Positions 2,059 through 64,000 are shown, counted from the stretch's first letter. The stretch is DNA of 64,000 nucleotides from Candidatus Aldehydirespiratoraceae bacterium (GCA_965198315.1 OZ240616.1:391096-455095); one strand, 5' to 3'. The notes: generated by a model from the sequence alone, not told the origin. Made by a program: numbers and translations.

Positions 2059-2151
2059 GGTCTCTATTGACCCCCTGTCTTGTTTGATTTCGCAACTCTA
2101 GAACGAGTCCTGAGTCCGGACCGAGGTTAGCAGCCCCACATTGACCGAACT

Positions 2152-19236: not shown

Positions 19237-19241
19237 TTCCG

Positions 19242-28563: not shown

Positions 28564-28616
28564 ATGGTGAGCAAGTTGCTACTCACCTGCGAAGTTGGCG
28601 ATCTCTCGATTGGTGA

Positions 28617-36943: not shown

Positions 36944-37365
36944 TTGTCCCGGACCTGAACCTGCTCGTCTACGCCCACAGCACCGGCGCGCCACTGCACG
37001 ATCCGGCCCGGCAATGGTGGGAGGATCTGGTGAACGGAACCGAACGAGTCGGGGTTCCGTGGCTGGTGGCGGCAGGTTTCGTGCGACTGCTCACCCACCC
37101 CAGGGTCATGAACACCCCAGCGGATCCGGCGCACGCCGTTGACCTCATGGCCCAATGGTTCAACTCACCCACCGTTTCACCGCTGAACCCGGGCCCCCAG
37201 CACATCGCGCTCTTGCGCAACATGCTGGCTGCCGCCGGCACAGGAGGAGACCTCGTCACCGACGCCCACATCGCCGCGTTGGCCGTTGAGCACCAAGCAG
37301 AGGTCCACTCCAACGACAGCGACTTCACACGCTTCCCCGGGCTGAGCTGGCGCAACCCGCTCTGA
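36940..37365 (+). CDS. vapC: PIN-domain ribonuclease toxin VapC
   Basis: MIVPDLNLLVYA (first acidic residue), TDAHIAALA and SNDSDF motifs. Confidence 0.85.
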   Translation: MIVPDLNLLVYAHSTGAPLHDPARQWWEDLVNGTERVGVPWLVAAGFVRLLTHPRVMNTPADPAHAVDLMAQWFNSPTVSPLNPGPQHIALLRNMLAAAGTGGDLVTDAHIAALAVEHQAEVHSNDSDFTRFPGLSWRNPL

Positions 37366-46471: not shown

Positions 46472-46611
46472 GCGGAACGTCGTTTCTCCCAGGGGAACAT
46501 CGGCCCTAGTGTTCCGCACAATCGAGTCTGTTGGCAACCGTTCCCAGCGAAGATAGGCCTTACCAGCGAACATCCGCTAGCCTCATTCCCCTGAGCGGAA
46601 CAGCAGAACCA

Positions 46612-49970: not shown

Positions 49971-50104
49971 TGTCGTGGCAGTTCCCTGATGTTGTTGGCA
50001 GTGTGGTTTGTTGACACTCGTCGCTGCTCAGCCCTACTGTCAGGCCGAATGAAACGTTGTTCCGCTTAACGGAACAACTTTCCTCTGACGATACCGGAGT
50101 ACCT

Positions 50105-50917
50105 ATGCGCGAGACGTTGAAGGGCGTCCAAGACATCTTCGACGAGCGAGGTCCGACAGATGCTACGGCAACGTTCAACCGCCTGTGGTCCATCACCGGT
50201 GAACTCATGGCCAAGATCGAAGCCCGGTTCGAGTTGACCCGAGACCCGAGCACCGACGATTTGGAGTCCTACCGAGGCGAAACTGAGCACCCCTCAGGAC
50301 GGCTTGCCGCCTATGCCGGACCCGAAATCGACTGGCTGGTCCACTCCTGGATCGGCAACCCGCCGCTGGGCTTCACCAACATGCACGTAACCGCCTGGCT
50401 CGGCCCGCAAATAAACGTTCCCCATCTCGGTATCGCCTGGGGAACCCTGCCCGACCTGTGGTTCTACATCGACTTCAATGCCCGTTCCGATCTCATGCTC
50501 GACACCGAAGCGCTGGACAAATACTTCGAACCGCTCAACGAAGAGTTCTTGGAGTTGCGCGCCGATGAGGGGCTGGCACCGTTCACCTCCAGGGCTTTGT
50601 ATATCCGCCAAGCGCTGAGCGACGTGGCCATCTGTTTCACCACCCCCAACCGCACCCACGACAAAGCACGGCTTGACCAGGTGAGCGAACTGGCCCATCG
50701 GCGGGTCGACCAATGGCTGCGCTGGGTTGATGAAGCCGAACCGGTGCCGCAAGCACGTCGCGAAAAACTTACCGCAGACGATCTGGCCCGGCGACGCAAC
50801 ATCGCCGAACGAGACCCCGCGAACGTGATGGCGGAACGGTTCTTCGGTCAGGAGATGACCGATCGCCTGGTTCGAGCTCTCTGGGGTGGCGACCGGCTAC
50901 TGCTGAGACCCAGTTAG
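50105..50917 (+). CDS. red-chlorophyll-catabolite-reductase-like (FDBR/RCCR family) protein 1
   Basis: ggag RBS before ATG 50105. Segments IDWLVHSWIG, VPHLGIAWG...YIDFNARSDLMLDTEALDKYFE, APFTSRALYIRQALS and ERFFGQEMTDRLVRAL line up with the Arabidopsis RCCR (ACD2) segments IDFVIGSWI, APNFVVEL...LDLPHRKDLVLNPDYLKEYYQ, NPYVSPSLFVRSAFS and PRMFGEEVSSRVVHAI as I remember them. Confidence 0.65.
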   Translation: MRETLKGVQDIFDERGPTDATATFNRLWSITGELMAKIEARFELTRDPSTDDLESYRGETEHPSGRLAAYAGPEIDWLVHSWIGNPPLGFTNMHVTAWLGPQINVPHLGIAWGTLPDLWFYIDFNARSDLMLDTEALDKYFEPLNEEFLELRADEGLAPFTSRALYIRQALSDVAICFTTPNRTHDKARLDQVSELAHRRVDQWLRWVDEAEPVPQARREKLTADDLARRRNIAERDPANVMAERFFGQEMTDRLVRALWGGDRLLLRPS

Positions 50918-50927
50918 GACGTATCGA

Positions 50928-52118
50928 ATGTTCATCAAGAACCACTGGTATGCAGTCGAGTTCGGTGCCGATGTCGTCGGCGAGCCTGTACTGGCCCGGG
51001 TACATGGCCACGACCTGGTGCTGTGGCGCAGTCCCGACGGCACCGTCAACGCCCAATCCGACCTGTGCGTCCACCGTGGCGGTTCACTTGCCGGAGGCAA
51101 GGTGGTGGGCAACTGCGTGCGGTGCCCTTACCACGGGTGGCGCTACGACACCGGCGGTGCGTGTGTGGAGATCCCCGCAAATCGGCAAGGTCTGCCCATC
51201 CCCAAAAAGGCCCGGATCGACACCTATCCCTGTATCGAGCGCTACGGGTTCGTATGGGTGTTCCTGGGCGACCTGCCTACAGAGCAGCGACCTCCGGTGC
51301 CTGTACTCGACGGCCTCGAAGAACACACCGAAGCCAAAGCCGAGGGTTACCGCGCCATATTCGGCGAGTTCACCTGGAACGCCAACTACGACCGGGTGTT
51401 GGAGAACGCAGTCGACATCGCCCACACCCCGTTCGTGCACTCCGGATCGTTCGGCAACGCTGAGCAACCTGAAATCGGTGACTTTGAACTCGAAGAGGAC
51501 CACCACGACGGCTATTTGACTTCGGTGACGGCCACGGTCGACCTTGAGCCACCACGCCCATCAGGGCTGTGGAAGTTCATCTCCAAGAAAGACCGCCCCC
51601 CGGTCAGCACAACTACCGGGTTCTATCCCCCCAATGTGTCGCTCTTGATCGTGCGCCTGCCAATGGGCGAGATTCGCATCTTCACCGCGGCGGTCCCCCG
51701 AGATGAGCACCTCACCGTCTCGAAGTTCGCCATGTTGCGCACGTTCTTCACAGGCGGTTGGGCCGACAAGAACTCCATGCAACGCACAATCAAGATTTTT
51801 CTGGAGGACCAGCCCACCGTGGAGGGGCAGCGGCCCGAGTTGTTGCCGTTCGATTTGTCGGCCGAACTGCATGTCAAGTCCGATTCGATCCAGTTGGCCT
51901 ACCGTCGCTGGCGCCAAGAGCAGCTCGACAAAGGCTGGGGACTTGAAGTGCTCTCGGACGAATCGGCCATGCGGGCCGCTGCGGTGATTCCCTCACCGGC
52001 ACGATCGGGCGATCCAGAACTGGCTAACGCCTGGGTGTTCCCCACCGTCACTGAGGCTGTAGCGCAACGGCCTGTCGGCGAGACCGCGCAACGGTCCGTC
52101 GGCGAGGCCGAGCGATGA
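50928..52118 (+). CDS. Rieske [2Fe-2S] non-heme-iron oxygenase, PaO/VanA-type single-component alpha subunit
   Basis: CVHRGGSL...CPYHGW Rieske ligands and ENAVDIAHTPFVH mononuclear-iron motif. The C-terminal FLEDQPTVEGQ and SDSIQLAYRRW resemble the PaO/Tic55/VanA lineage. Confidence 0.85.
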   Translation: MFIKNHWYAVEFGADVVGEPVLARVHGHDLVLWRSPDGTVNAQSDLCVHRGGSLAGGKVVGNCVRCPYHGWRYDTGGACVEIPANRQGLPIPKKARIDTYPCIERYGFVWVFLGDLPTEQRPPVPVLDGLEEHTEAKAEGYRAIFGEFTWNANYDRVLENAVDIAHTPFVHSGSFGNAEQPEIGDFELEEDHHDGYLTSVTATVDLEPPRPSGLWKFISKKDRPPVSTTTGFYPPNVSLLIVRLPMGEIRIFTAAVPRDEHLTVSKFAMLRTFFTGGWADKNSMQRTIKIFLEDQPTVEGQRPELLPFDLSAELHVKSDSIQLAYRRWRQEQLDKGWGLEVLSDESAMRAAAVIPSPARSGDPELANAWVFPTVTEAVAQRPVGETAQRSVGEAER

Positions 52119-52834
52119 GCCTGTCGGCTGATCTGTGCCTTGGGGCTGTCGAGGCGATTGAGGCTCGCTTGGGGTTGGCGGAGACCGTGAACACACCGCT
52201 GGTTTCGGCGCTGGACGGTTCGCCGGTTGGTGCCCACCGGGTGTTGGCGCGTGACGGGCTGGCCGCGTTGGTGTACGTGGGTATGACTGTGGAGGCATTC
52301 GGACTCGACAGCCACATGTGTTTCGCGTTCACGGATGCTCACAGTCCGGTCCCTCATTTCACAGTGGATTCGGTGTTGGCCGGTCCCCACTATGCGTTCC
52401 ACCTTGATCTGATCCCCCGCCTGGACCCGGGTGCGAACCTGGCCTACATCGACCATTGCTACGGCCCGCTCACCGAAACCCATGACACGGTCGTGGAGAT
52501 GGAGGGGCTGACACCCGCACATTTGTCACCGCGGCAATGGCAGTTGATGTCGGCCTGGATGCTGGCCCATCGCGCCGACGAAGACGGATTTCGGGGGGTG
52601 TTCGATGCGGTGTCCGCATATCGCGACCACTGGCTCAAGTTGGTGGTCGAGGGTGTGCCTGACGATGCCCTCGGTGGCGCGACCCCAGACGATCTGGATC
52701 GGCGTGACTTCCGCAACCGCGAGGCAATCTTCAGCCCCGAGGTGGACCCCGTCTGGGCTCGGGTCGACCAACTGCTCGGCCCAGAAACCAGCGCCAATAT
52801 CCAAACCAGTCTCAAAACCGCAGCACGCAGCTAG
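52115..52834 (+). CDS. red-chlorophyll-catabolite-reductase-like (FDBR/RCCR family) protein 2
   Basis: The ATGA overlaps the oxygenase gene. SPVPHFTVDSVL....FHLDLIPRLDPGANLAYIDHCY parallels RCCR APNFVVELI....LILDLPHRKDLVLNPDYLKEYY. The C-terminal DLDRRDFRNREAIF...VWARVDQLLG parallels ELERRDKSFRRKSI...FPRMFGEE. Confidence 0.6.
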   Translation: MSLSADLCLGAVEAIEARLGLAETVNTPLVSALDGSPVGAHRVLARDGLAALVYVGMTVEAFGLDSHMCFAFTDAHSPVPHFTVDSVLAGPHYAFHLDLIPRLDPGANLAYIDHCYGPLTETHDTVVEMEGLTPAHLSPRQWQLMSAWMLAHRADEDGFRGVFDAVSAYRDHWLKLVVEGVPDDALGGATPDDLDRRDFRNREAIFSPEVDPVWARVDQLLGPETSANIQTSLKTAARS

Positions 52835-52861
52835 AACAAGCACCGAGAACGGAGATCACCT

Positions 52862-53800
52862 ATGAGCGAAACCGAAGCCTCCGAGTGGCAGCAGCGCATC
52901 ACCGGTGAATGGTACGGCCTGCCGTCGGTTTTCGATGCCGACGGAAGCCACACAGGGTTCAACAAGGTCAGTCGGGCCAGCGTGTTCGCCGACGGCAAGG
53001 TCACCTATTGGATGCAGTGCAACTTCATGAACACCGGACCGTTGCGCAACCGCTTCGAGATCCGCGATTTCGAGTTCGGCGTGGACGATCAGGGCAACGA
53101 CCGCATCTATCATGGCCCCGACTTCTACGGGGCAGGCCACCCCTACGGTTCGCTGGTGGATTCGCACTATTACGCACCGGGTTGGCGGGCCGATCTCAAC
53201 ACCATGAACCAGATCCTCCCCGACGGAGTGACTCAGGTGTACTCGTCTCTGCTGTATGAAGGACCGACCATCTTTGCGGTGTTCAACGGGGTGTATCTCA
53301 ACGCCCACGACTACGACACCAATGCCGACACCAAAGAATGGATCGACACCCACATCGAGGCCGAACGCGAGCTGGCCTCATGGCCCCACACCGTGCCCGA
53401 CCGGATCGGCGGTGAATGGACCGGGCAATGCGAGGTGTTCGGGGCCGATCAACAACGTCGGGGCACAGTGGATGTGCGCTTGCGCAACGACCCCATCGAC
53501 TTGGTGTGCGCCAACTGCACTCTGGACATGTCCGGGACCATCGACCGGTCTCTGAGCTACATCCGCACCCGCTCTGGTGGCAACCGTTACACCTACGACG
53601 GCCCCGATTTCTGGGGCAACGCCATCGCTTACGGTCGGGCGCTGTACACGACCCAGCATCATGCGAGCGAGGCGTTCAAGATCAAAGGGCGGGAGTTCAT
53701 CCTTGACCGCAACTACACGCTGGCTGTGGCCTGGAAGCTCTACTCCGGCGACCGCATGACCGACATCGTGTTCGGCCCCCTCAACTGGTCATCCGACTAA
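52862..53800 (+). CDS. two-module GxWxG beta-barrel-like protein (DUF3598/nitrobindin/lipocalin-like, tentative)
   Basis: Two internal modules each open with the signature ITGEWYGLPSVFDADG / IGGEWTGQCEVFGADQ. 27 nt after RCCR-like 2. Confidence 0.55.
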   Translation: MSETEASEWQQRITGEWYGLPSVFDADGSHTGFNKVSRASVFADGKVTYWMQCNFMNTGPLRNRFEIRDFEFGVDDQGNDRIYHGPDFYGAGHPYGSLVDSHYYAPGWRADLNTMNQILPDGVTQVYSSLLYEGPTIFAVFNGVYLNAHDYDTNADTKEWIDTHIEAERELASWPHTVPDRIGGEWTGQCEVFGADQQRRGTVDVRLRNDPIDLVCANCTLDMSGTIDRSLSYIRTRSGGNRYTYDGPDFWGNAIAYGRALYTTQHHASEAFKIKGREFILDRNYTLAVAWKLYSGDRMTDIVFGPLNWSSD

Positions 53801-53879
53801 CGCGCCAACGGGGTGTTGCCGGTTGGGTTCAACCGATGGCCACCTCTACCAAGGGCCCGAGCGAATAGGTGGTTGTCCA

Positions 53880-54247
53880 GGTCTCCTCTGGTTGAGCCGC
53901 TGACGAACCACCGGGAACCATCATCGGTCCTACCCAACCAAGCAGGACTCAAACCACCGAGAACCATCATCGGTCTGCTCTGGTTGAGCCGCTGACGAAC
54001 CACCGGGAACCATCATCGGTCCTACCCAACCAAGCAGGACTCAAACCACCGAGAACCATCATCGGTCTCCTCTGGCTGGGCCACTGACAAACCACCCGGA
54101 ACCATCATCGGTCCTACCCAACCAAGCAGGACTCAAACCACCGAGAACCATCATCGGTCTCCTCCGGCTGGGCCACTGACAAACCACCCGGAACCACCAT
54201 CGGTCCTACCCAACCAAGCAGGACTCAAACCACCGAGAACCATCATC
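53880..54247. repeat. 4 x 92-bp tandem repeat (each unit is two 46-bp half-units)
   Basis: Units start at 53880, 53972, 54064 and 54156. Each half-unit ends in aaccaccgRgaaccatcatc. The period is not a multiple of 3. The array lies downstream of the DUF222-HNH gene. Confidence 0.95.
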
Positions 54248-54339
54248 GACCCCTCCCGACCGACCCGCCGCCTCACCGCGGCCGCGCCAGTCGACGTGCC
54301 TCAACCTCTCCTCTTTTGCTAGATGGCTGGGTGTCACGG

Positions 54340-55503
54340 TTAGGGGCCGTTTGGGGGGTTGTTGGGGTTGATGATTTTGTAGCCGGTGTTGGTTTTGATG
54401 ACGATGTAGCCGCGGTCGTGGATGTTGTGGTGGCAGTGTGGGCAGGCGAGACACATTTTGTCGATGTCGGTTAGTCCGCCGTCTTCCCAAGGCACGATGT
54501 GATGGATTTCGCAGCGTTCAGGACCTGCGGTGCAGTCTTTGCCTGTGCAGTGCCGGTCGCGGGCGATGATGGCTTTGATTTGGGCTTCGGTGGGGAGCCT
54601 ACGGTCGCGTCCCACCCAAATGGGTTGGCCTTTGCCGTCAAACACAACGCCGGTCACTGTGGCCATGCACATCAAGCGTTCCAGCACTGTTTGGGGTAAG
54701 GCTTCACCACCGACGATCTCAGCGACACAGGTGGGGTTGTCGCCTCGTAGACGTTCAACGTCGGCTACTGCGATCAGTTGCATCCTTGTGCTGCCCGGCC
54801 CGCAACGGCCCACATCGGTCAACAACGCCACGAACGCGTCGGCTAAGCGTTGTGGTGTTGTGCGAACATCGTCGGGGGTGCCGTCGCGGCCGCCGTCGTC
54901 ACGCCACATGCGGTCGTATTCAACATTGATTGCTTTGACCGCTTGTTGATAGCTAGTCGGATCGAGTTCTGCTAACAGCACACCCATACCTTCTTCGTTC
55001 ACCCAATGCTTGAACAACCGGTTGCGGCGTTGCTGTTGATACAACTCGGCGCCGTCGTCGGGTTGGTTGCGGTTCACCCACCGCCGCGACTGTTCAGCGA
55101 ACGCATCAACAGACGATGTCTCAGCAAGCTTCGACAACTCGTCGTCTACTTGCCCAGACGAAGTCTTGGCCGCAGCCCCAACCGCCACCGCGGCGTGTTC
55201 GACAGTGATGGCACCACTAGCCAACGCTTCGGCCAGCTTCGGCATCTCCGCGAGTCCAGCAGCAGTCTTCGCGACCGAATTAGCGGCACGAGTGGACATG
55301 CGCCCCGCCTCACGCAGCACCGTCTTGGAGTTCACACCACCATCATCAAGACCCTCGATCTCGGTTGCGCAGCGTGTCTGCAACGCACCCAACGCGGCGA
55401 TCACCCGCCCAGCACCCGCAACCAGACCCTCCAACTCGCCGCGGCACAGCCCAGAAACCACCACCCCCCGGGTCTGTTTGATCATCGAATCGAACATGAC
55501 CAC
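54340..55503 (-). CDS. DUF222 + HNH endonuclease protein (REP13E12-type actinobacterial repeat gene)
   Basis: N-terminal DUF222-like helical region. C-terminal ARDRHCTGKDC....CEIHHIVPWEDGG.TD..N....C..CH..IH HNH motif. Confidence 0.85.
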   Translation of the reverse strand: MVMFDSMIKQTRGVVVSGLCRGELEGLVAGAGRVIAALGALQTRCATEIEGLDDGGVNSKTVLREAGRMSTRAANSVAKTAAGLAEMPKLAEALASGAITVEHAAVAVGAAAKTSSGQVDDELSKLAETSSVDAFAEQSRRWVNRNQPDDGAELYQQQRRNRLFKHWVNEEGMGVLLAELDPTSYQQAVKAINVEYDRMWRDDGGRDGTPDDVRTTPQRLADAFVALLTDVGRCGPGSTRMQLIAVADVERLRGDNPTCVAEIVGGEALPQTVLERLMCMATVTGVVFDGKGQPIWVGRDRRLPTEAQIKAIIARDRHCTGKDCTAGPERCEIHHIVPWEDGGLTDIDKMCLACPHCHHNIHDRGYIVIKTNTGYKIINPNNPPNGP

Positions 55504-55800
55504 AACCTAGCCAAAGGGTGTGACACTACATGAAAATAGAGATCCACGATGGCTACGGTTGTGGCTACGGATCACCAATGGGTGACCGCGCACTTACACC
55601 GTCAGGGCCCGTTGGGAATCACAGAAATCTCGAGTGGTTGATGTGGATCTGGGCTCGTGGAATCCGCGTATCCGAGAACGCCGCCAAGCTGGAAGCGCTC
55701 GGCTCAGGATCCCCACGTCCCAAACAACCACACGACAGAACCTCGGCATGAATCACACAAAAAACAGTCTCTGATTCACCCTGGGACGTTCCTATAGATG

Positions 55801-56883
55801 TCAAGTGCGGGTTTTGAGGGTGGCGAGGTCGGCTCGCAGTGTGCGGTAGATCTCTCGTGCGAGGTAGCGCTTGAGGCAGCGGATGGCTTCTTTCTTGGTT
55901 TTGCCTTCGGCGACGCGGCGGTCGAGGTAGCTGCGGGTTCGGTCGCAGTAGCGGAGCCGGACGATGACGATCATGTGCAGTGCCCGGTTGGCGGCGCGGT
56001 TGCCGGCGAAGTTGAGCCGGTGGCGGCTGGTGCGCCCGCTGGATGCGGGCACCGGAGCGGTTGCGCACAGGTGGGCGAAGGACGCTTCGGAGCCGAGCCG
56101 GTCGATGTTCTCGCCGGCTGCGACGAGCAGCGCCGCGGTGTGGTGGGTGCCGCATCCCAGACGCGACACTGTCGTGGGCGCTGCGGCGGCGACGAGCCGG
56201 TCGAGTTCGCGTTCGAGTTCGTCGGCTTCGGCGCCGAGCCGGGCGATGCGGCGCCCCAGGCTGCGCAGTGCTGCTTTGGCGGCCTGGGCGGGATCGGCGA
56301 GCCGGGCGGGGTCGGGCCGCAGCCGGGCGCACACCGCGGCTTTGCCCTCGAGGGTGCGGCGGGTGTCGAGCTGTTCGCGCAGCGCGGCGGGGGCGGTGAC
56401 GAGCAGGTCGCCGAGCTGGCACAGCGCAGCGGAGCGGGCTTTGACAGCGCTGCTGCGGACGACGCTGAGCTGGCGGATCGACTCGACCACGCCGGTCGTG
56501 TCCTTGGCGGCTGCGGTCGCTTCGCCCGAGAGCACCTTGCGGGCGGCGGCCTCGGCGTCGATGGCGTCGTTCTTGCCGCGGCGCGAACGCAGATGCGCGT
56601 GCGGCTGGTTGACCTCGATCACCCGGCAGCCCTGCTCGGTCAGCGACCGGGCCAGGGCAGCTCCGTAGGACCCGGTCGATTCCACGCCGACCGCGGCGAT
56701 CGGGCCGAACGACAAGAGCCATTCATGAGTCGAGCGGTAGCCAGCGCCGGTCGCGGGGAACGACTCAGTGCCCAGCACCCGACCCAAGGGGTCGAGCGCG
56801 GCGGCTACGTGGAAGTCGGTGTGGCAGTCAATCCCGCCGATCACCGCCTGTGGTGGTGGTTCTGGCATCATGTTGTCCTTCAT
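55801..56883 (-). CDS. IS110-family transposase
   Basis: IGGIDCHTDFHVAA (DEDD N-terminal domain), VGVESTGSYG, NDAIDAEAAA and C-terminal LKRYLAREIY. ATG 56883 chosen. Confidence 0.9.
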   Translation of the reverse strand: MKDNMMPEPPPQAVIGGIDCHTDFHVAAALDPLGRVLGTESFPATGAGYRSTHEWLLSFGPIAAVGVESTGSYGAALARSLTEQGCRVIEVNQPHAHLRSRRGKNDAIDAEAAARKVLSGEATAAAKDTTGVVESIRQLSVVRSSAVKARSAALCQLGDLLVTAPAALREQLDTRRTLEGKAAVCARLRPDPARLADPAQAAKAALRSLGRRIARLGAEADELERELDRLVAAAAPTTVSRLGCGTHHTAALLVAAGENIDRLGSEASFAHLCATAPVPASSGRTSRHRLNFAGNRAANRALHMIVIVRLRYCDRTRSYLDRRVAEGKTKKEAIRCLKRYLAREIYRTLRADLATLKTRT

Positions 56884-57199
56884 CTCGGAGCGGCTCGCGT
56901 GCCGGGACGGGACGGACATAACAGTGATGAGGCATCTGTCAGCGCAGGTTCCTATGAGGTCACGTCGCTCGTTCCGGACCGGCCGCAGCTGGCAAGTCCA
57001 AGGAGCAGACCGCCGACATCGACGAGTCCCAGGCAAGGCACCCACAACACGCAGGGCCAGTTTTGCGGCAAGTCAGACGCCGACGGCCCGCTCCCCGCAC
57101 ACATCTTCACTGTTTTGCGCAGGCTCCAAGGATTGGAGCAAGCATGGGAGCTATGGACACACAAGCGAACACGGCGGGGACGTCTCGTCGGTATTCGGC

Positions 57200-57492
57200 T
57201 GAGCAGAAAAAGCACGCGGGTACGTGCCGACAACACAATCACCTGCTGGGGCAACAACACCTTGGGGCAGACTGGTGCGCCTGAGGGGAAGTTCCAAACT
57301 GTTTCCGCCGGCTCGGGGCATTCGTGCGGGTTGCGTGCCGACAACACACTCACCTGCTGGGGCAACTACTTCGATGGGCGGACTGATGTGCCTGAGGGTG
57401 CGTTCAAGACTGTATCCAACAGCGAGGAGTACTCGTGTGGGGTACGTGCCGACAACACAATCACCTGCTGGGGCTACATACGGATAGGTTGA
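57200..57492 (+). pseudogene. RCC1_2-like repeat gene fragment (about 2.5 blades)
   Basis: RADNTITCWGNNTLGQTGAPEGKFQTVSAGSGHSCGLRADNTLTCWGNYFDGRTDVPEGAFKTVSNSEEYSCGVRADNTITCWGY, with 111-nt periodicity and near-identical 33-nt segments at 57220 and 57442. No credible start. Abuts the IS110. Confidence 0.5.
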
Positions 57493-57620
57493 TGCGCCTG
57501 CGATGACGTGCTCGGCTCGCTGGGCACGTGTTGCATCTAGCAAGGGGCCGAGCAGACAGGCGGTGGTCCAAGTCTGTTCCGGCCCGGGTCCGTTCTGCTC
57601 GAACCGCCGGGAACCACCGG

Positions 57621-57682
57621 GTTTGAACTAGGACTTGACAAACCTTTGTTGTTATTGCAAACTAGTTTGTGTTACAAACTAG
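57621..57682. promoter_or_regulatory. candidate promoter/operator upstream of the membrane-protein/wHTH operon
   Basis: ttgaca at 57635-57640. Perfect 12-bp palindrome caaactagtttg at 57658-57669, with related half-sites gtttgaactag (57621-57631) and acaaactag (57674-57682). Confidence 0.4.
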
Positions 57683-57696
57683 ATGGAGGCGAGCAA

Positions 57697-58323
57697 ATGC
57701 AGACATTCGATGACAGCTCAGATCCCCTGACCGCCGAGGAGAGTTGGCAGGCCATCCACACCACCATGGACGATGCCCGGAGCTCGATGTACCTGGCCGG
57801 AAGCACGAAGATCATGCTGTTGTGGGGCGTGATCGTCTCAGTGGGATGGCTCTCCCAGTACGCCATCGAGACGCTCGCCACCGAGTTCGTCGAGGACAGG
57901 CCAGAGGTCTCAGGCTTGTTGTGGGCTGTCCTCGGCCCGGTGGGTGGGGTGAGTAGCGGCTTCATCGGTCACCGAGCGAGCCAGAACATTGCGGCAAGCG
58001 AAACGGCCCGCCGGGCAGGGATCCGGGTCTGCCTTTTCTGGGTCACCCTCGTGGTGGCCTCGTTCCTCCTCATTGGCGCGGCAGGGTTGTGGAACGATGC
58101 CGAGCACCTCCCGCGATTCTGGGTGGGCATGGCGGCACTCGGATACGTCCTGTTCGGCATCATGCACCGTCCCATGATCGCGGTGTTGGGTCTGGGCTTC
58201 GCAGCCGCGTTCTACATCCCGGAATACCTCCTCGGCGACGTGGCACTGGCGGTGTCCGGATCGGCGACGCTGGCCATGACGGTTGCCGGCTTCGTGTGGG
58301 TCCACAAGACCGGCGAATGGTGA
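57697..58323 (+). CDS. integral membrane protein (about 5 TM), unknown function
   Basis: ggagg RBS before ATG 57697. Hydrophobic helices throughout. Stop overlaps the regulator start. Confidence 0.65.
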   Translation: MQTFDDSSDPLTAEESWQAIHTTMDDARSSMYLAGSTKIMLLWGVIVSVGWLSQYAIETLATEFVEDRPEVSGLLWAVLGPVGGVSSGFIGHRASQNIAASETARRAGIRVCLFWVTLVVASFLLIGAAGLWNDAEHLPRFWVGMAALGYVLFGIMHRPMIAVLGLGFAAAFYIPEYLLGDVALAVSGSATLAMTVAGFVWVHKTGEW

Positions 58324-58727
58324 ACGACGAAGCCTCCATGACCAGTCAGCCGTCCCCGTCCACGGACGCAACTCCCGTGTCGACCGGCGAGGAGATCATC
58401 CTCGATGAGACCATCCATCAGCCGACCCGGCTGCGCATCATGACGCTGCTGGTCTCGGTTCTCGAGGCGGACCGCCTGGCCTACGGATTCATCCAGCAGA
58501 CCCTGCGGCTGACCGGCGGCAACCTGACGGTCCATCTGCGCAAGCTCGAGGCCGCGGGGCTGGTGACCATCACCAAGGAGTTCCAAGGCGCCAAACCGCG
58601 CACCTGGGTGCAGGCGACCACACAGGGACGACGGGCCTTCGCCGAGTACCTGTCGAACCTGGAGAGGGCGCTCGGGGTCAGTGTCCGCGGGGTGCCTGCC
58701 GACGATGGACAAGCAGGCAGCCAGTGA
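58317..58727 (+). CDS. winged-helix transcriptional regulator (ArsR/MarR-like HTH)
   Basis: HQPTRLRIMTLL........GFIQQTLRLTGGNLTVHLRKLEAAGLVTI...F.G.KPRTWV..T..GR.AF. Confidence 0.75.
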   Translation: MVNDEASMTSQPSPSTDATPVSTGEEIILDETIHQPTRLRIMTLLVSVLEADRLAYGFIQQTLRLTGGNLTVHLRKLEAAGLVTITKEFQGAKPRTWVQATTQGRRAFAEYLSNLERALGVSVRGVPADDGQAGSQ

Positions 58728-58808
58728 CCGACCGCATCTTGGCGCAGGGGAAACGACCAGCAATCGAAAGGATCGTTTGATGCGATGCGCCGGGTGGAGT
58801 TCTCCGGG

Positions 58809-59498
58809 TCAACCGATGGTCACTGTTACTGAACGGGTGTCGTCGTCGATGGTCTCAGCAAGGGCGATAGCGGTTGCTCCGATCGGGTCGTTCATGGTCC
58901 ATAGGCGGCGGTGTTGTGACGGCGCTGGCCAACAGGCCGCAACCAGCAGCGGGCCGACTGCACGGCGCAGTGGCCATTCATCGCCGTCTTCGGGCAGCGG
59001 GGCCGACAGGTCCAAGCGAGGCTCGATCCCGGACGCTTCCGGGACGGCTACTCCCACGATGTCGGCCACTGACCGTCCGGCTAGTGAGAAGAACCCGCCG
59101 GTGAGTTGGCGGTCGGGGGTGACAAGCACGCTGTAGGACTCGAACTCGTATCCGAATCGGGGCCACAGGCCCTGTCCGGTCATTGCCCCGGGCTGCCATT
59201 GTGTCGCGGTGCCCACCACATCGGGGCCCAGGTAGCGGCGCTGGTCACCGACCACTTCGAGATCGAATACCCATTCGCCTGCGAACGCGGCCATGGCGTG
59301 GCCGTCGAGTGCGAGCGACGGTTCGCATTGTTGGGTCACCCGCAGCCGCGCTTCGTCGATCTGTTCGACGCAACGGCGCTGGGCGACGGTTCCTCGGTAA
59401 GTACCGTCGGGGTCGTACACGTATTCGGTTACCCGCCAGGCGCCGCCGAAGCTGTCATCGCTGTTCACACTGTCGTTGCTCATGTCATCGCTGCTCAT
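58809..59498 (-). CDS. GxWxG-type barrel-like protein (paralogue family)
   Basis: FGGAWRVTEYVYDPDGTYRG opening signature. 4-nt overlap with the upstream gene. Family tentative. Confidence 0.5.
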   Translation of the reverse strand: MSSDDMSNDSVNSDDSFGGAWRVTEYVYDPDGTYRGTVAQRRCVEQIDEARLRVTQQCEPSLALDGHAMAAFAGEWVFDLEVVGDQRRYLGPDVVGTATQWQPGAMTGQGLWPRFGYEFESYSVLVTPDRQLTGGFFSLAGRSVADIVGVAVPEASGIEPRLDLSAPLPEDGDEWPLRRAVGPLLVAACWPAPSQHRRLWTMNDPIGATAIALAETIDDDTRSVTVTIG

Positions 59499-60397
59499 GC
59501 CGGATCGAAGGCCAGGGTGCCGTAGCTAGCCCCAACCCGCTCGGAGCCCCGATACCAGATGCAAAGCACCGCCTTCATGGTGCCGTCGAGTGCTGCTACT
59601 TCGCGGCGCCACACCCGCAGTCCGTCGGTCTGGTGATGGAACTGTCCGCTGAGACCCCTGCCGCCGCTGAGGGTTGCGCTACCTGTCACCTCGCCGTTCG
59701 GGGTCCAGGCAGACCAGCCGTCAGAGGTCAGCGGGAACGAGACATCGCCTGCGAACCCAAGCCCTGACAACTCCACTTGGAATTGACTGCTCCCTTTGGT
59801 GACCGTCTCGGCATATGCAGCCACCTCGGTAGGTTCAAGATCAGCATCGAGATGGTGCAACTGGCCCGACCAGCACCCCGAGCGCAGCAACAAAAGCTCG
59901 TCTCGGCCCGCCGCTGGGTCGTCTCCCAACTCCGCGGGGTCCATCGCTTGAACAGGCGGCGGTGTCGGCGCCTCAGCGTCAACTTGACGCTGATACTCGC
60001 CGACCACCGTCCAAACAAGCCTCACCCCCCGGCTCAGCAAAGCCAGAGACAACTGACGTGATCCGTCGGGCAGCACCATCAAGAAGAAGCGCTGTGACAG
60101 ACCAAGGTCCGGCCAGTAGTTGTGAGCCGCCACCAGGCCGTCGCCCAATGCCTCCGCGTAGCCCACGTTGAGCGGGCCCTCATAGGTCCGATACGAACCG
60201 TGATCGACGATGGTGTACTCCCCCGACAGCGAGAACGGCCCGTCGAAGGTGACTTCTACGGTTACTGTCCCGGCCTGGTCATCGGCCTGCACTGACCGGG
60301 TGTCGCGCCCCAACCCAGCGAAGCGACCTTGAGAGTCGTATACCTCAGCCGCGCCGATCCATTGACCGACACCCTGAGAGAACGACCCACTGCTCAC
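59495..60397 (-). CDS. two-module GxWxG barrel-like protein (paralogue family)
   Basis: Modules open with GVGQWIGAAEVYDSQGRFAG and RSGCWSGQLHHLDADL. 4-nt overlaps on both sides. Confidence 0.5.
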   Translation of the reverse strand: MSSGSFSQGVGQWIGAAEVYDSQGRFAGLGRDTRSVQADDQAGTVTVEVTFDGPFSLSGEYTIVDHGSYRTYEGPLNVGYAEALGDGLVAAHNYWPDLGLSQRFFLMVLPDGSRQLSLALLSRGVRLVWTVVGEYQRQVDAEAPTPPPVQAMDPAELGDDPAAGRDELLLLRSGCWSGQLHHLDADLEPTEVAAYAETVTKGSSQFQVELSGLGFAGDVSFPLTSDGWSAWTPNGEVTGSATLSGGRGLSGQFHHQTDGLRVWRREVAALDGTMKAVLCIWYRGSERVGASYGTLAFDPA

Positions 60398-61212
60398 GCT
60401 CGGACCAAGTGCACCGTCTGCGCCTCGATCGACGTCGCTGCCAGCTTCGCGGCGAGGTCGGTGCCCGCCGGTTGCGGAGAGAGGTAACGGCCCTCTGTAG
60501 CCAATTCGAGTTCACCGGCAGCAAATGGATACGGGTCCAGTTCGTAGACCGCACCGGGCAGTTCCACGACCGAGACGGTCACGTCGTCGCCGACCGCTCG
60601 GGGCACGTTGTGGAACTCTGATTCGCCGCGTTCGCCTTCGGGGGCCAGGTGCATGTAGAGGGAGAGCGTGTCGAAGAACTGGAGCTGTTTGTAGGCGTGG
60701 AACAGGTACTCGTTGCTTGCATGCTCAGGGTCGCTCACCGCTAGCTGCTCTCGGAGGCGGCTCTGACGGTCCTCTTCTGCTGCCAGCATGGCGTCAACTT
60801 CGGGACGCAGGTCCTCTCCGATGCTGTCGAGGAAGATCTTGTCGCTCAGCCCGTACCGTCCCCGATACAGGCCGTAGGTGTGCATCGACGAGATGATGCC
60901 GCTGAACGGGTGATGGCTCTCGTTGAACGCCGGCGACCCCGCCGAGGTGGCAACGATTTGCGGCAACGGCGTAGCTGTGAGGTTGTACGGCAGTCCGGTC
61001 GCCGGGTCTTGAGGGGCGGTGGCATCCAGGTCGGCCCATCCTTGGTCGTGGTGGTCGACGATGAACTGCATCGGTTCGGTGGGTTCGAGCCCGGCGAAGT
61101 CTTCGTTGCCGAAGTTCACGGCCAGCGACCCTGCGAAGGCGGTGTGCTGGTGCATTGCGATCACGAAGTGCGGGGCGTCAGCAACACCGCCGGGGGCGCG
61201 CTGGACGATCAT
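60394..61212 (-). CDS. DUF3891-like protein
   Basis: IAMHQHTAFAGSLA and VDHHDQGWADLD His-rich motifs resemble DUF3891 as I recall it. ATG 61212 preferred, since the upstream track ORF is Arg/His/Gln junk. Confidence 0.5.
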   Translation of the reverse strand: MIVQRAPGGVADAPHFVIAMHQHTAFAGSLAVNFGNEDFAGLEPTEPMQFIVDHHDQGWADLDATAPQDPATGLPYNLTATPLPQIVATSAGSPAFNESHHPFSGIISSMHTYGLYRGRYGLSDKIFLDSIGEDLRPEVDAMLAAEEDRQSRLREQLAVSDPEHASNEYLFHAYKQLQFFDTLSLYMHLAPEGERGESEFHNVPRAVGDDVTVSVVELPGAVYELDPYPFAAGELELATEGRYLSPQPAGTDLAAKLAATSIEAQTVHLVRA

Positions 61213-61664
61213 GGCCGTTGGATCCGGGCGAAGTCTTGAATCTGGAACAGGTTGGTTTCCCCGTCCCGCACTTTGTGGGTGATGATGCGCCGGGTGTCGG
61301 GGTTCAAGAAGTAGTGGTTGTTGTAGACGATGGTGTTGCTGACTCTGCTGTCGATGGTGAACACGTAGTTGTATGGCGTGAGTTCGGCGCCTTCGAGGCT
61401 GATCTGTTCGCTGTCGGCGAAGCACCGTTTGCCTTCAACTCCGATCGGCGTGTTGAAGATGGTTTCACCCACGCCGTAGAGGTTTTCGAAGTGTTCGTGG
61501 AGGTGCCAGGTCTGGTCGTCGAGCCAGTAGACATCCATGTGCACCGCGCTGGATTCAAGGAACTCCCCTTCGGGGCTGAAGCTCTTGCACAGCCCTTCCC
61601 AGCGGCCCATGAAACACTGATAGGGCCTATCCGAAGTGGGGCCGTAGCTTTTTTGTTCGCTCAT
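61209..61664 (-). CDS. single-module GxWxG barrel-like protein
   Basis: ATG 61664. FMGRWEGLCKSFSPEGEFLE signature. 151 aa. Confidence 0.5.
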   Translation of the reverse strand: MSEQKSYGPTSDRPYQCFMGRWEGLCKSFSPEGEFLESSAVHMDVYWLDDQTWHLHEHFENLYGVGETIFNTPIGVEGKRCFADSEQISLEGAELTPYNYVFTIDSRVSNTIVYNNHYFLNPDTRRIITHKVRDGETNLFQIQDFARIQRP

Positions 61665-61733
61665 GGCGCAATCGTAGAGTGCCCGGCCCGACAATGAAAC
61701 CGCGTTCCACTGAGCGGAACCATAAGCTGAAAT

Positions 61734-62696
61734 ATGATCGTTCGGGGATGGTACTTTGCGTTTGAGGCCGACGAAGACGCAGCTGTAGCCACGCTGTACT
61801 ACCCCGGTGACGACCAACGGTTGGCAGAAGCTCGGTTGACCGGGCGCGTCCCCCCGATCGAATCGCCCGATCCCTGGCCGGTGATCGTGATGATGCCGGG
61901 GATCAACATCGCTCCCGACGGCTACCGCTGGCTGGCTCACCGACTCGTGGCCGACGGATTCTGCGTTGTGACCTGTGCGGCTATCGGTTCACTCGGGCCT
62001 GCGGGGCGGGGCATCACTCCCGGTATCGATATGGGTGCGCTGTTGCCTGACACGATCGGTACCCGACCGTCGTCCACCGTGCTCGAACCGCTGCTGGCTC
62101 GTCTCGACGGCGCCACCGAAGACGACAGCCCCGTGGCTGGACTTCTGGATCTGACCCGGGTGGTGATCGGTGGTCATTCCGCCGGTGGCACGGTGGCGTT
62201 GCACAACAGCGACCCTGCCTGGGTCCCGGGCCTGCAAGCGGTGTTCACTTACGGCGCTCACACCATGACCGCCACTGCGTTGGGGCACGGCGAGAGCACC
62301 GTTGTGACCGTGCCGGCCAAGGTGCCACAGATGTTGCTGGGCGGGACTGACGACGGGGTTATCTCAGCGAGCCGTGACCGCTACCTCACAAAGCAAGACG
62401 ACACGGCCCACGACCCCATCCGCCGAACCTTCGACGAGGCCATCGGCCGTGACACCGGCGATTCCTGGCTGGTTGAGTTGGCCGGAGTGGGCCATTTCGC
62501 TATCTGCTGGCCGCTCGACACCACAAGCGGTCGCACTTTCCTGGAGTCCGACCCTGTCTCAGCAGACCCCGAGATCCGAGAACTGCTGGCCGACCTCATC
62601 GCCGCATTCATCGCCACGAGTCTCGACCGCCCCGTCCCCAAAAGCCTGGAGAGCCTTGTCGAGCATCGCCTGGTGACCCACTGGAGACGGCGCTGA
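61734..62696 (+). CDS. alpha/beta hydrolase, chlorophyllase/dienelactone-hydrolase-like
   Basis: YYPG....PWPVIVMMPGINIAPDGYRWLAHRLVADGFCVV parallels the chlorophyllase N-terminal pattern. GGHSAGG nucleophile elbow. Late GTDDG and GVGHF (Asp/His candidates). Confidence 0.7.
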   Translation: MIVRGWYFAFEADEDAAVATLYYPGDDQRLAEARLTGRVPPIESPDPWPVIVMMPGINIAPDGYRWLAHRLVADGFCVVTCAAIGSLGPAGRGITPGIDMGALLPDTIGTRPSSTVLEPLLARLDGATEDDSPVAGLLDLTRVVIGGHSAGGTVALHNSDPAWVPGLQAVFTYGAHTMTATALGHGESTVVTVPAKVPQMLLGGTDDGVISASRDRYLTKQDDTAHDPIRRTFDEAIGRDTGDSWLVELAGVGHFAICWPLDTTSGRTFLESDPVSADPEIRELLADLIAAFIATSLDRPVPKSLESLVEHRLVTHWRRR

Positions 62697-62733
62697 ACCC
62701 GGCGTTCTCGTACAATCTGCAGGAGAGGGCTAA

Positions 62734-63540
62734 ATGGGCAAGCGCATTGTTATCACGGGGAGCACGAGGGGGATCGGCAACGGGTTGGCCCGTGAGTTCC
62801 TGAAGCGCCAATGCCAGGTCGCCATCAGTGGACGCTCAGCCGACAGCGTGGCGACGGTGGTGGCCGAACTCGGTGAGTATTACGGGGCGTCCAAGGTCTG
62901 CGGCAAAGCCTGCGACATCACCAACCCCACCCAACTCCAGGAGCTATGGGACCACGCCGCACAAGCATTCGGCGGGGTCGACATATGGATCAACAACGCG
63001 GGAGTCAGCATTGAGCGCCGACCTCTGTGGGAACAATGCGACGACGACCTGGCTGGATTGGTCAACACCAACCTCACCGGAGCGCTGCTAGCCAGCAAGA
63101 CAGCTGTGTCCAACATGGTGCGCCAAGGCCACGGACAGGTTTGGAACACCGAAGGGTTCGGTTCTGATGGCGCCACTCAACCCGGTATGGCCGCCTACGG
63201 CGCCACCAAGCGCGCCGTCCGTTACCTGCAGAAAGCCCTACGCAAAGACACCGCCGACACCGATGTGCAGATCTGCACTGTCTCGCCGGGCATCGTCGTG
63301 ACCGACCTGCTCACCGGCGACTACGACCTCACCTCCGAACAGTGGGAGAAGTCGAAGAAGATCTTGAACATTCTGGGCGACGAGGTCCACACCGTCACTC
63401 CCTGGCTGGCCGACCACATTCTCGCGACCGACAAGTCCGGCGCCCGCGTGGTGTGGCTGACCCGCCGCAAAGCCTTCGCCCGTTTCATGACTGCGGCGTT
63501 CCGCAAACGCGACCTGTTCGTCGACATCAAGGGCGCCTGA
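62734..63540 (+). CDS. short-chain dehydrogenase resembling chlorophyll(ide) b reductase NOL/NYC1
   Basis: VITGSTRGIGNGLAREFLKRQCQVAISGRSADSV..VV.EL, VDIWINNAG, N.EG.GSDG.TQPGMAAYGATK, SPGIVVTDLL and ILNILGDEVHTVTPWL follow the NOL pattern ITGSTRGLGKALAREFL..GD.V.I.SRS..SV, INIWINNAG, N.DGAGSGG.STP..AVYGSTK, SPGMVLTELL and FNIICELPETVARTL (from memory). Confidence 0.8.
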   Translation: MGKRIVITGSTRGIGNGLAREFLKRQCQVAISGRSADSVATVVAELGEYYGASKVCGKACDITNPTQLQELWDHAAQAFGGVDIWINNAGVSIERRPLWEQCDDDLAGLVNTNLTGALLASKTAVSNMVRQGHGQVWNTEGFGSDGATQPGMAAYGATKRAVRYLQKALRKDTADTDVQICTVSPGIVVTDLLTGDYDLTSEQWEKSKKILNILGDEVHTVTPWLADHILATDKSGARVVWLTRRKAFARFMTAAFRKRDLFVDIKGA

Positions 63541-63546
63541 CGACCC

Positions 63547-64000
63547 TTAGGACTCGCTTACACCGGTGACCGCGGAGCCGCTGCGGGCTATGGCCGTCAG
63601 GTCGCCTCCGAGGTAGCTGCGCACCACGGCGGCGTCGGCTTGGACCTCGCTCGGGGTGCCCTCGGCGATGACGGAGCCCGTCTCCATGGCGATCAGCCGG
63701 TCGCAGACCGAACTCAGCAGCGGCATGTCGTGCTCGATCACTATCAGCGTCATCTGGTAGGCGTCGCGGATCTGGGTGATCAGTGTGCCCAGTGCCTCCG
63801 TTTCGGCTTGGGCGATACCGGCCGAAGGTTCGTCCATGAGCAGCAACCTTGGGCGCAGAGCAACGTTGGCCGCCAGCTCGACGAGGCGGCGGGTGCCGGT
63901 GGACAACAGGCTCACCGGCTGGTCAGCCAAGCCGCCGAGACCGAACACGGCGAGCGTCTCGGAAGTTTCGTCCTCGATTCGGCGTTCGGCTGACGATCCA
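63547..64000 (-). CDS. ABC transporter ATP-binding protein (LivG/LivF-like), C-terminal part; continues beyond the window
   Basis: LSTGTRRLVELA (signature-like), LLLMDEPSAGI (Walker B) and IEHDM (H-loop). The frame stays open to the window edge. Confidence 0.8.
   Translation of the reverse strand, partial: GSSAERRIEDETSETLAVFGLGGLADQPVSLLSTGTRRLVELAANVALRPRLLLMDEPSAGIAQAETEALGTLITQIRDAYQMTLIVIEHDMPLLSSVCDRLIAMETGSVIAEGTPSEVQADAAVVRSYLGGDLTAIARSGSAVTGVSES

Follow-up and report, generated by a model that had tools for sequence, protein, structure and literature searches.

Two RCCR-fold proteins and a Rieske oxygenase at the core of a candidate tetrapyrrole-catabolic island in non-photosynthetic bacteria

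Plant red chlorophyll catabolite reductase (RCCR) reduces red chlorophyll catabolite at its C15/C16 bond in a ferredoxin-dependent manner. What becomes of the chlorophyll macrocycle and of phyllobilins once they are outside the plant or alga is, to our knowledge, largely unknown. Here, we analysed a stretch of 64,000 nt from a Candidatus Aldehydirespiratoraceae bacterium (GCA_965198315.1 OZ240616.1:391096-455095; one strand, in its full length referred to as the window, G+C 60-66%), in which two genes for RCCR-fold proteins, RCCR1 and RCCR2, bracket the gene of a Rieske oxygenase. These genes form the centre of a probably catabolic island that spans about 24 kb (39.4-64.0 kb of the window, upstream edge at about 39.4 kb), for which we discuss a role in the breakdown of a tetrapyrrole-derived compound. 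A sequence-only reading of the window had proposed that the locus combines homologues of most enzymes of the plant chlorophyll-degradation pathway and that no bacterial operon of such composition is known.

Three lines of previous work are closest to this system. RCCR is described as a streptophyte (charophyte) innovation, the origin of which is unexplained (Schumacher et al. 2022, PMC9306834). For bacteria, the preprint 'Chlorophyll a degradation in Prokaryotes' (Aliyu, Fruh, Sturm & Kaster, March 2026, bioRxiv 10.64898/2026.03.19.712979) reports 1,193 RCCR structural homologues. About 33% of the genomes that it credits with an 'RCCR-type complete pathway' are from Actinomycetota, its dominant cultured families include Micromonosporaceae and Streptosporangiaceae, and SGR and RCCR are mutually exclusive across genomes. 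The same preprint gives a single co-location, i.e., homologues within 11 kb in Shewanella acanthi, and shows that the Shewanella wildtype decolourises chlorophyll extract while the PPH/CLH double mutant does not; only dephytylation was tested there, and no actinobacterium. The preprint is based on genome-wide co-occurrence and nowhere uses the words operon, gene cluster or synteny. Finally, FDBR relatives of the pre-PcyA type are known from non-photosynthetic bacteria, where their clusters are biosynthetic and comprise heme oxygenase, an Fe-S protein, V4R proteins and globins (Rockwell et al. 2023, PMC10151467). RCCR 'and related sequences' serve only as the outgroup in that study, and neither its text nor its supplement mentions actinobacterial RCCR-like proteins.

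We found no description of a two-RCCR/Rieske operon in this literature. That is, the operon itself appears to be undescribed, as the sequence-only reading had held, while the wider claim of novelty has in part been overtaken by the homologue sets and the 11-kb Shewanella acanthi co-location of the preprint. The idea of bacterial chlorophyll catabolism has already been proposed, since the preprint reports RCCR, PAO, PPH and CLH homologues in Actinomycetota.

The closest relatives of the window are sponge- and marine-associated metagenome-assembled genomes of Acidimicrobiia (Candidatus Aldehydirespiratoraceae, Poriferisocius, Poriferisodalis), with RCCR1 up to 97% identical. The five open reading frames (ORFs) around which the sequence-only reading was built are all present, i.e., RCCR1 (50105..50917), the oxygenase (50928..52118), RCCR2 (52115..52834), an alpha/beta hydrolase (61734..62696) and a short-chain dehydrogenase/reductase (SDR, 62734..63540), all on the plus strand. 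The proposed coupling of the RCCR-like pair to the Rieske gene between them is borne out as well: the RCCR1 stop codon (50915-50917) is separated by 10 nt from the Rieske ATG at 50928, and the Rieske stop overlaps the RCCR2 start in an ATGA (52115-52118). RCCR2 is followed after 27 nt by an ORF of 312 aa with a GGAG ribosome-binding site. A scan for promoters and terminators gave nothing above chance, and NCBIfam provides no equivalog-level name for any of the core genes.

RCCR1 was assigned by Pfam, phmmer and profile scores to the RCCR family (PF06405). It matches Pfam RCC_reductase with 53.8 bits (cut-off 24.9) and Fe_bilin_red with only 17.8 bits, and aligns over residues 71-259 (about 190 residues) to the Arabidopsis RCCR (AtRCCR) structure 3agb (phmmer, E=7e-9). 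All 120 RCCR1 homologues listed carry PF06405. The family is sparse, i.e., its profile matched only 396 clusters (50% identity) among 1.84 billion representatives, and RCCR1 relatives are carried by 302 species genomes. Eukaryotic RCCR and RCCR-like proteins, including those of the moss Ceratodon, of Chlorella vulgaris and of Spirogloea, score 68-107 bits with the RCCR1 profile, whereas the operon partner RCCR2 reaches only 24.5 bits. This difference argues that RCCR1 is a genuine member of the plant RCCR family, and the scores would place it closer to the plant and algal proteins than to RCCR2. Closeness was judged from profile bit scores in place of a tree: a neighbour-joining tree of RCCR1, RCCR2 and eukaryotic RCCR was discarded as a caterpillar artefact of saturated distances and fragmentary sequences. 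The RCCR1 profile search also returned RCCR-like proteins (P0488, P0370) of Chlorella vulgaris and of the transcriptome of the non-photosynthetic protist Rigifila ramosa, the latter a possible contamination. Chlorophytes are reported to be without RCCR.

RCCR2 is a diverged paralogue of the RCCR/FDBR fold whose family has no Pfam model. It matches nothing in Pfam or NCBIfam and does not pass the PF06405 cut-off, such that of the two RCCR-like proteins only RCCR1 is recognised by the RCC_reductase model. Relatedness to RCCR1 is visible in BLASTP (E=6e-6, 26% identity) and in the hhalign comparison of the two family alignments (98.7% probability, E=1.9e-16), and a PDB search with the RCCR2 profile retrieves AtRCCR (E=9e-4) and HY2 (E=7.5e-3). 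The AlphaFold2 model of RCCR2 (pLDDT 95.1) has AtRCCR as each of its nine best PDB matches (E=1.7e-11, TM-score 0.71-0.73), followed by PebA, PcyA, HY2, PebB, PebS, one chain of the Ycf2-FtsHi complex and then coproporphyrinogen oxidase. Here, only linear-tetrapyrrole reductases are found at E<1e-5, with the Ycf2-FtsHi chain (4.4e-5) as the sole exception. RCCR2 is thus a separate, unannotated branch of the RCCR fold, and the claim of two RCCR-like proteins holds, for RCCR1 by Pfam and for RCCR2 by paralogy and model comparison.

With regard to individual residues, we take Glu154 and Asp291, in this numbering, to be the catalytic pair of AtRCCR. The invariant D85 of RCCR2 aligns with E111 of the AtRCCR chain, which is Glu154 if the chain offset is 43, and RCCR1 shows an invariant Ala at this position; in RCCR1 as well as in RCCR2, an invariant Asp is found one or two positions away from Asp291. 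The gaps in these alignments are placed ambiguously.

The gene between the two RCCR genes encodes a Rieske [2Fe-2S]/VanA_C-type mononuclear-iron oxygenase according to Pfam (Rieske 75.6 bits, VanA_C 93.9 bits) and to its motifs. In the translation, both the CxH...CxxH motif (C47-V-H49...C66-P-Y-H69) and the D-x2-H-x4-H motif (DIAHTPFVH) are intact. The locus thus resembles the plant PAO/RCCR step in that a Rieske-type monooxygenase gene adjoins an RCCR-family gene, and RCCR1 resembles plant RCCR in passing RCC_reductase and in aligning with AtRCCR. It differs from the plant pathway in its two RCCR-fold proteins (three in a metagenomic variant, see below) instead of one, in the lack of an SGR, HCAR, TIC55 or ferredoxin gene, and in its setting, i.e., a regulator-controlled catabolic island with amidases, CoA-transferases and lyases in a heterotrophic host. 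Neither Staygreen nor ferredoxin was found among the genes scanned, as had been stated before; likewise, no photosynthesis genes were seen among the window ORFs scanned, and heme genes are indeed present, with hemB, hemD, hemC and hemA of early heme synthesis in a row on the minus strand (328-5138), 45 kb from the island.

Compared to the preprint's SH-RCCR-type set, which covers heterotrophs, foremost Actinomycetota, with RCCR, PAO-like and PPH/CLH-like homologues and without SGR, the window shows RCCR, a Rieske oxygenase and an alpha/beta hydrolase with no Staygreen seen, as judged by family and not by the preprint's hidden Markov models. Micromonosporaceae and Streptosporangiaceae, named there, also carry the two-RCCR cluster. 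Not described in the preprint are a second RCCR paralogue, the operator and the barrel and DUF3891 proteins presented below, and the funnel of amidases and CoA enzymes.

Next to the core, the pair of hydrolase and SDR genes is of interest, which the sequence-only reading had likened to chlorophyllase and to chlorophyll b reductase NOL/NYC1. Pfam, the GHSAGG motif and BLAST assign the hydrolase to the serine alpha/beta hydrolases and, among these, to the chlorophyllase/PETase/DLH-related group. It scores 26.8 bits with PETase PF12740, just below the cut-off of 28, and E=0.13 with Chlorophyllase PF07224; the PETase family we take to be the one formerly named Chlorophyllase2. Its orthologue from Thermomonospora (39% identity), sited between RCCR1 and the Rieske gene, reaches 31.7 with PF07224 (cut-off 26), but across 43 residues only. 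That is, the GxSxG serine hydrolase stands, while the chlorophyllase label rests on generic similarity with both Pfam cut-offs missed. An extra gene of 452 aa downstream of the Streptosporangium cluster (L063 16431-17789; four loci) passes the cut-offs of both Chlorophyllase (29.1) and PETase (30.1). The SDR is a classical one by motifs, NCBIfam and PDB. It carries TGSTRGIG, NNAG and YGATK, but the same motifs define all classical SDRs, and its best NCBIfam and PDB matches are of FabG and glucose-dehydrogenase type (80-130 bits, all under cut-offs). The NOL/NYC1 label therefore appears to rest on generic SDR similarity. The window SDR is 54% identical to the in-operon SDR of Thermomonospora.

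To judge which genes belong together, we rely on the conservation of gene order. Our first survey comprised 85 loci, 59 close and 26 distant. Among the close loci, the Rieske gene is found in 57, RCCR2 in 58, the barrel gene in 58, the SDR in 41, the hydrolase in 42 and a CN_hydrolase in 52-54; the respective numbers for the distant loci are 25, 25, 21, 20, 18 and 20-22. In Thermomonospora echinospora and Micromonospora, the order is CN_hydrolase, RCCR1, hydrolase, Rieske, RCCR2, barrel, SDR, a gene without assignment and Amdase, preceded by IclR, flavin reductase, ACAD-like monooxygenase, aldehyde dehydrogenase and FAD monooxygenase genes; the cluster proteins are 39-56% identical to their window counterparts. 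An Anaerolineae locus (Chloroflexota, L087) shows orthologues of thirteen window genes within one co-directional array. The array comprises a small barrel, DUF3891, both barrel paralogues, RCCR1, hydrolase, Rieske, RCCR2, the double barrel, SDR, Amdase, an aconitase-C protein, CoA-transferase and cyclic amidohydrolase. Bacterial SGR homologues are known from Anaerolineae; we looked for Staygreen in this cluster and did not find it. A metagenomic variant (L091) has three RCCR-like genes and a fused LIV-type ABC transporter beside the Rieske gene.

In Anaerolineae and in the actinomycetes Thermomonospora, Micromonospora, Actinomadura, Streptosporangium, Actinoplanes and Streptomyces, the genes of hydrolase and SDR directly join the core. 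Co-conservation is hence strong, such that the sequence-only reading clearly withstands the lack of co-conservation that it had named as a refutation, and the pair is part of the RCCR/Rieske unit because of its contiguity with the core in soil actinomycetes and Chloroflexi. The arrangement within the window could also be read as a chance neighbourhood, in which hydrolase and SDR are unrelated to the core: both belong to generic families, and the pair (37 nt spacing) is separated from the core by 8 kb, which include genes on the opposite strand and a mobile insertion. The separation from the core is found across the window lineage, with the 5-kb insertion added in the window. Given that the two genes adjoin the core in six actinomycete genera and Anaerolineae and that a hydrolase-RCCR fusion protein exists, these conservation data refute the chance explanation, which we consider extremely improbable. 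In the fusion protein (P0486), the N-terminal half is 32% identical to the window hydrolase (E=5e-31) and the C-terminal half is an RCC_reductase domain. Its gene (L086 7584-9425; P0525, P0486) lies on a metagenomic contig of 9.7 kb with 50% G+C, and the protein has a signal-like N-terminal sequence. Since the neighbouring genes encode a RING-finger protein and a DEAD/HA2 helicase, the source is presumably a eukaryote.

RCCR-family genes are also found in other surroundings, i.e., beside MerR and TerB genes (L090) and, on a Woeseia-like contig (L092), beside a divergent alpha/beta hydrolase, a two-component system and a plant-type Fer2 ferredoxin. When all ORFs of the flanks were clustered without bias, no further widely shared family and no heme oxygenase emerged, gene calling being crude in these very GC-rich loci. 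The accessory modules (cyclic and linear amidases, maleate-isomerase/Amdase-like enzymes, PrpD/aconitase-type hydratases, CoA-transferases, acyl-CoA lyases) are each mainly lineage-specific.

The third component linked to the core are barrel proteins. The ORF directly following RCCR2 (52862..53800, plus strand) encodes a tandem lipocalin-like double barrel of 312 aa with a BFA1/DUF3598-like fold according to AlphaFold2 (pLDDT 91.9) and Foldseek, where BFA1 (5yvf, E=9.8e-9) and a Nostoc DUF3598 protein (2o62, TM-score 0.61/0.69) are matched. It shares with these the two lipocalin-like barrels in tandem (TM-score 0.55-0.69), but there is no detectable sequence similarity (8-11% identity) and no Pfam family match. 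BFA1 is a chloroplast ATP-synthase assembly factor; unlike it, the 312-aa protein is an operon partner of redox enzymes. The gene follows RCCR2 in 58/59 close and 21/26 distant loci. On the minus strand, two paralogues are encoded, one of 229 aa (58809..59498; BLASTP to the 312-aa and 300-aa families, orthologue in the Anaerolineae array) and one of 300 aa with two GxWxG motifs (59495..60397; BLAST paralogue of the 312-aa protein). They are accompanied on that strand by a DUF3891 protein (60394..61212, with the ORF running on to 61425 and the start inferred from an alignment with relative L004; Pfam 113.9 bits, orthologue in the Anaerolineae array) and by a presumed single barrel of 133 aa with the GxWxG-type motif GRWEG (61209..61610; 88% identical to L004, 72% to the Anaerolineae orthologue). 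The seven GxWxG barrel modules noted earlier are accounted for by the proteins of 312, 300, 229 and 133 aa.

Upstream of the core, the island consists of genes for catabolic enzymes and a regulator. It starts on the minus strand with a family III CoA-transferase of succinate-glutarate or succinyl-CoA:mesaconate-like type (39419..40615; Pfam CoA_transf_3, NCBIfam 270 bits, under cut-off), which is 63% identical to one beside the Thermomonospora cluster and present in 48/59 close and 7/26 distant loci. An HMG-CoA-lyase-family lyase follows on the plus strand (40627..41541; NCBIfam PRK05692 337.7 bits, cut-off 246; 52% identical to the Thermomonospora neighbour). The next four genes are again on the minus strand: a cyclic amidohydrolase of allantoinase/hydantoinase/imidase type (41574..43037; Pfam Amidohydro_1, NCBIfam allantoinase/dihydropyrimidinase matches under cut-off), whose orthologue (47% identity) is inside the Anaerolineae array; an MmgE/PrpD-family (de)hydratase (43034..44449; Pfam MmgE_PrpD_N and MmgE_PrpD_C; in 48/59 close loci); a cyclase/arylformamidase-like hydrolase (44460..45284; Pfam Cyclase 100.5 bits); and a second family III CoA-transferase (45281..46573; Pfam CoA_transf_3 408.8 bits). 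On the plus strand, an IclR-family regulator (46627..47394, start uncertain with the ORF opening at 46531; 53% identical to the IclR of the Thermomonospora cluster, NCBIfam BhcR/PcaR-like) precedes a tandem nitrilase-superfamily CN_hydrolase amidase with a His/Gln-rich insert (47387..49171, start uncertain with the ORF opening at 47288; two Pfam stretches). The latter is directly upstream of RCCR1 in Thermomonospora and Micromonospora. Searched with the window protein, it is detected in 52/59 close and 20/26 distant loci; with the Thermomonospora protein as query, the numbers are 54 and 22. Its insert, a low-complexity stretch enriched in His, Gln and Asp (HGQHEHGQHGDGQH...HSHGQHGDTQHGDTQHSH), lies between the nitrilase-like halves and is missing from the 535-aa orthologue in L004; it may serve metal binding or be a linker expansion. 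Divergent from RCCR1, a CitE/RipC-like acyl-CoA C-C lyase is encoded (49155..49970, minus strand; Pfam HpcH_HpaI, NCBIfam RipC_Ccl 143 bits, under cut-off).

Between this lyase gene and RCCR1, we identified the palindrome TGTTCCG-N5-CGGAACA (50058..50076, within an inverted repeat at 50053-50081) as a putative operator. An exact copy is present in 26/85 loci, in most of them likewise 30-47 nt ahead of the RCCR1 start, and the palindrome also occurs in a distant locus (L077) with RCCR1 only 53% identical. The island is probably under control of its own IclR-family regulator. At the opposite end, the window is cut within the C-terminal end of a fused LIV-type (HAAT) ABC importer (63547..64000, minus strand; Pfam ABC_tran and BCA_ABC_TP_C). 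The full fusion has 930 aa in L004, and a transporter of the same kind is the one adjoining the Rieske gene in L091.

Given these observations, we consider it an even call that the island serves to take up and dismantle a tetrapyrrole-derived compound in non-photosynthetic Actinomycetota and Chloroflexota. A tetrapyrrole is favoured since the structural neighbours of RCCR2 act on linear tetrapyrroles and since the plant RCCR branch acts right after a Rieske oxygenase. The most attractive sub-case, a chlorophyll-derived substrate (pheopigment or phyllobilin), is a tentative one. Pheopigments are already without Mg, which would explain the absence of an Mg-dechelatase. The Rieske enzyme together with two RCCR-fold reductases may form the catabolic unit, with a mechanism that we infer as follows. 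The esterase would remove an ester (phytyl or methyl), and the Rieske enzyme would open or hydroxylate the macrocycle or bilin. RCCR1 and RCCR2 would then each reduce one conjugated C=C, as plant RCCR does or as does the PebA/PebB pair, which the two proteins resemble as adjacent FDBR-fold enzymes with likely consecutive two-electron reductions. The barrel proteins could hold hydrophobic, photoreactive intermediates, and the SDR could adjust a keto, formyl or hydroxyl group. Pyrrole units would leave as lactam or maleimide-type pieces, which imidase and amidases would open to substituted maleates and ammonia, and hydratase/isomerase, CoA-transferase and lyase would feed the products to central metabolism. 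As far as family names tell, the accessory enzymes (imidase-type amidohydrolase, nitrilase-type amidases, Amdase/maleate-isomerase-like enzyme, PrpD- or aconitase-type hydratases, CoA-transferases, and lyases of HMG-CoA or citramalyl-CoA type) would suit lactam/maleimide ring opening and the disposal of substituted maleates or C5-C7 dicarboxylates.

Several observations weigh against a tetrapyrrole substrate or its chlorophyll-derived sub-case. First, there is the oxygenase. No PaO domain (PF08417) is found in it even at E<=10, and its C-terminal 60 residues hold neither a Cys pair (CxxC) nor a hydrophobic stretch or anchor. Proteins of the plant LLS1 family have both a C-terminal CxxC motif and a membrane anchor, such that the bacterial enzyme is unlike plant PAO in all three respects. 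The nearest solved structures are SxtT/SxtDIOX, NdmA and DdmC, i.e., N/O-demethylases and hydroxylases. Because of these findings, the oxygenase seems to lie outside of the PAO lineage, as judged by the absence of Pfam PaO. That is, from the former assignment to the PaO/VanA lineage, the VanA_C-type Rieske oxygenase is confirmed while the PaO lineage is not. Second, no Staygreen, heme oxygenase or ferredoxin/reductase genes are present in the loci examined, and RCCR-like genes also occur without a Rieske partner (L090, L092). Third, the version of soil actinomycetes includes a two-component flavin monooxygenase, an FAD_binding_3 monooxygenase and two aldehyde dehydrogenases, a set typical of N-heterocycle catabolism. 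Fourth, hydrolase and SDR look generic by sequence although they are part of the unit, and the maleimide funnel is deduced from family names only. Finally, LIV/HAAT importers are known for small solutes, which argues for a substrate smaller than an intact tetrapyrrole.

Much of this is shared by the explanation that the island is devoted to a non-tetrapyrrole N-heterocycle or a cyclic imide or lactam, e.g., a methylated heterocycle, a maleimide/tetramate natural product or a small pyrrolic compound. Here, the Rieske enzyme would be an N/O-demethylase or hydroxylase and the RCCR folds would have been recruited to reduce an exocyclic C=C beside a lactam. The structural relatives of the oxygenase and the linked importer fit this, as do the accessory genes for flavin reductase and ACAD-like monooxygenase, FAD_binding_3 and aldehyde dehydrogenases, for the Amdase/maleate-isomerase-like enzyme and amidases, and for hydantoinase/oxoprolinase-type proteins. 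On the other hand, the RCCR2 model has, bar the one Ycf2-FtsHi chain, only linear-tetrapyrrole reductases as neighbours at E<1e-5, RCCR1 is closer to plant RCCR than to RCCR2, and the four kinds of lipocalin-type barrels suggest a bulky hydrophobic ligand. We know of no FDBR/RCCR-fold enzyme acting on a non-tetrapyrrole, which also counts against this explanation. We rate it as rather unlikely but still as a serious rival, ahead of the following one.

Within the tetrapyrroles, the substrate might be a heme-derived or phycobilin-type bilin (biliverdin, phycocyanobilin, phycoerythrobilin, bilirubin oxidation fragments) and not a chlorophyll derivative. Such bilins are substrates of FDBR-fold reductases, the hosts are associated with sponges rich in cyanobacteria or are found in soil, and an Mg-dechelatase would be unnecessary. 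But the loci examined contain neither a heme oxygenase gene nor one of IsdG type; as far as annotated, there is no heme oxygenase among the recurrent gene families of the 85 loci. Furthermore, heme-derived bilins carry no esters, yet the esterase is conserved in the core and fused to RCCR elsewhere, and RCCR1 prefers RCC_reductase over Fe_bilin_red by the scores given above. Degradation of such bilins is thus quite improbable in our view. A biosynthetic bilin cluster was considered and rejected, given that heme oxygenase, phytochrome and globin are missing and the context is catabolic. The presence of FDBR relatives in non-photosynthetic bacteria is common to the island and the pre-PcyA clusters (Rockwell et al. 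2023, PMC10151467), but the island has a Rieske oxygenase and enzymes of catabolism instead.

The tetrapyrrole-catabolic interpretation can be extended to a complete assimilatory pathway, in which the non-PaO Rieske enzyme would open a chlorophyll-derived macrocycle, the RCCRs would detoxify the product and the rings would be broken via maleimides to central metabolites and ammonia. In addition, streptophyte RCCR would have the RCCR1 lineage as its nearest relative and might have been acquired from it by horizontal transfer. We regard this combined extension as unlikely.

The remaining features of the window concern mobile and presumably acquired DNA. Of the 13.5-kb locus of the sequence-only reading, the five genes are real, while about 5 kb of the span (53.8-58.8 kb) are a mobile insertion. 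This insertion (53801-58808) is lacking in the relative L008. It carries on the minus strand a DUF222/HNH endonuclease gene (54340-55503) and an IS110-family transposase gene (55801-57045), and on the plus strand a coding fragment with RCC1 repeats including a 111-bp repeat (about 57050-57492), beside the IS110 element, and a membrane-protein ORF without counterpart in the other loci (57646-58323). At the edge of the insertion, just past the double-barrel gene, there are four tandem copies of a 92-bp unit with 96% identity (53880-54248); copies of this repeat are also found in the closest relatives L006 and L007. A full-length RCC1-repeat (beta-propeller) protein is encoded at 32561-34606. RCC1 repeats are a eukaryote-like family often enriched in sponge symbionts. 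The part upstream of the island is a mobile-element-rich stretch, as seen from an AbiEii/AbiEi type IV toxin-antitoxin pair whose toxin has a WYL domain (27436-29414), an IS481-type integrase gene (30587-31747) and a PIN-domain gene (36940-37365). Further upstream, the patch of lowest G+C in the window (55.5%, 18-20 kb) coincides with an Eco57I-type N6 DNA methylase gene (17647-20183), which suggests acquired DNA at this gene.

As far as we have seen, the architecture of the two-RCCR/Rieske operon over two phyla is new, and so are the barrel and DUF3891 families, the hydrolase-RCCR fusion and the regulated link to a funnel for ring dismantling. The linkage of RCCR, Rieske oxygenase, esterase and SDR with amidases and CoA-dependent lyases is found at operon level in two phyla and thus is stronger than genome-wide co-occurrence. 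Since the cluster is present in cultivable genera (Micromonospora, Thermomonospora, Actinoplanes, Streptosporangium, Actinomadura), direct tests are possible. Three uncharacterised families become candidates for the handling of tetrapyrroles, namely RCCR2, DUF3891 and the double barrels including their paralogues. Finally, the apparent closeness of RCCR1 to plant RCCR bears on the question of where plants got their RCCR from.

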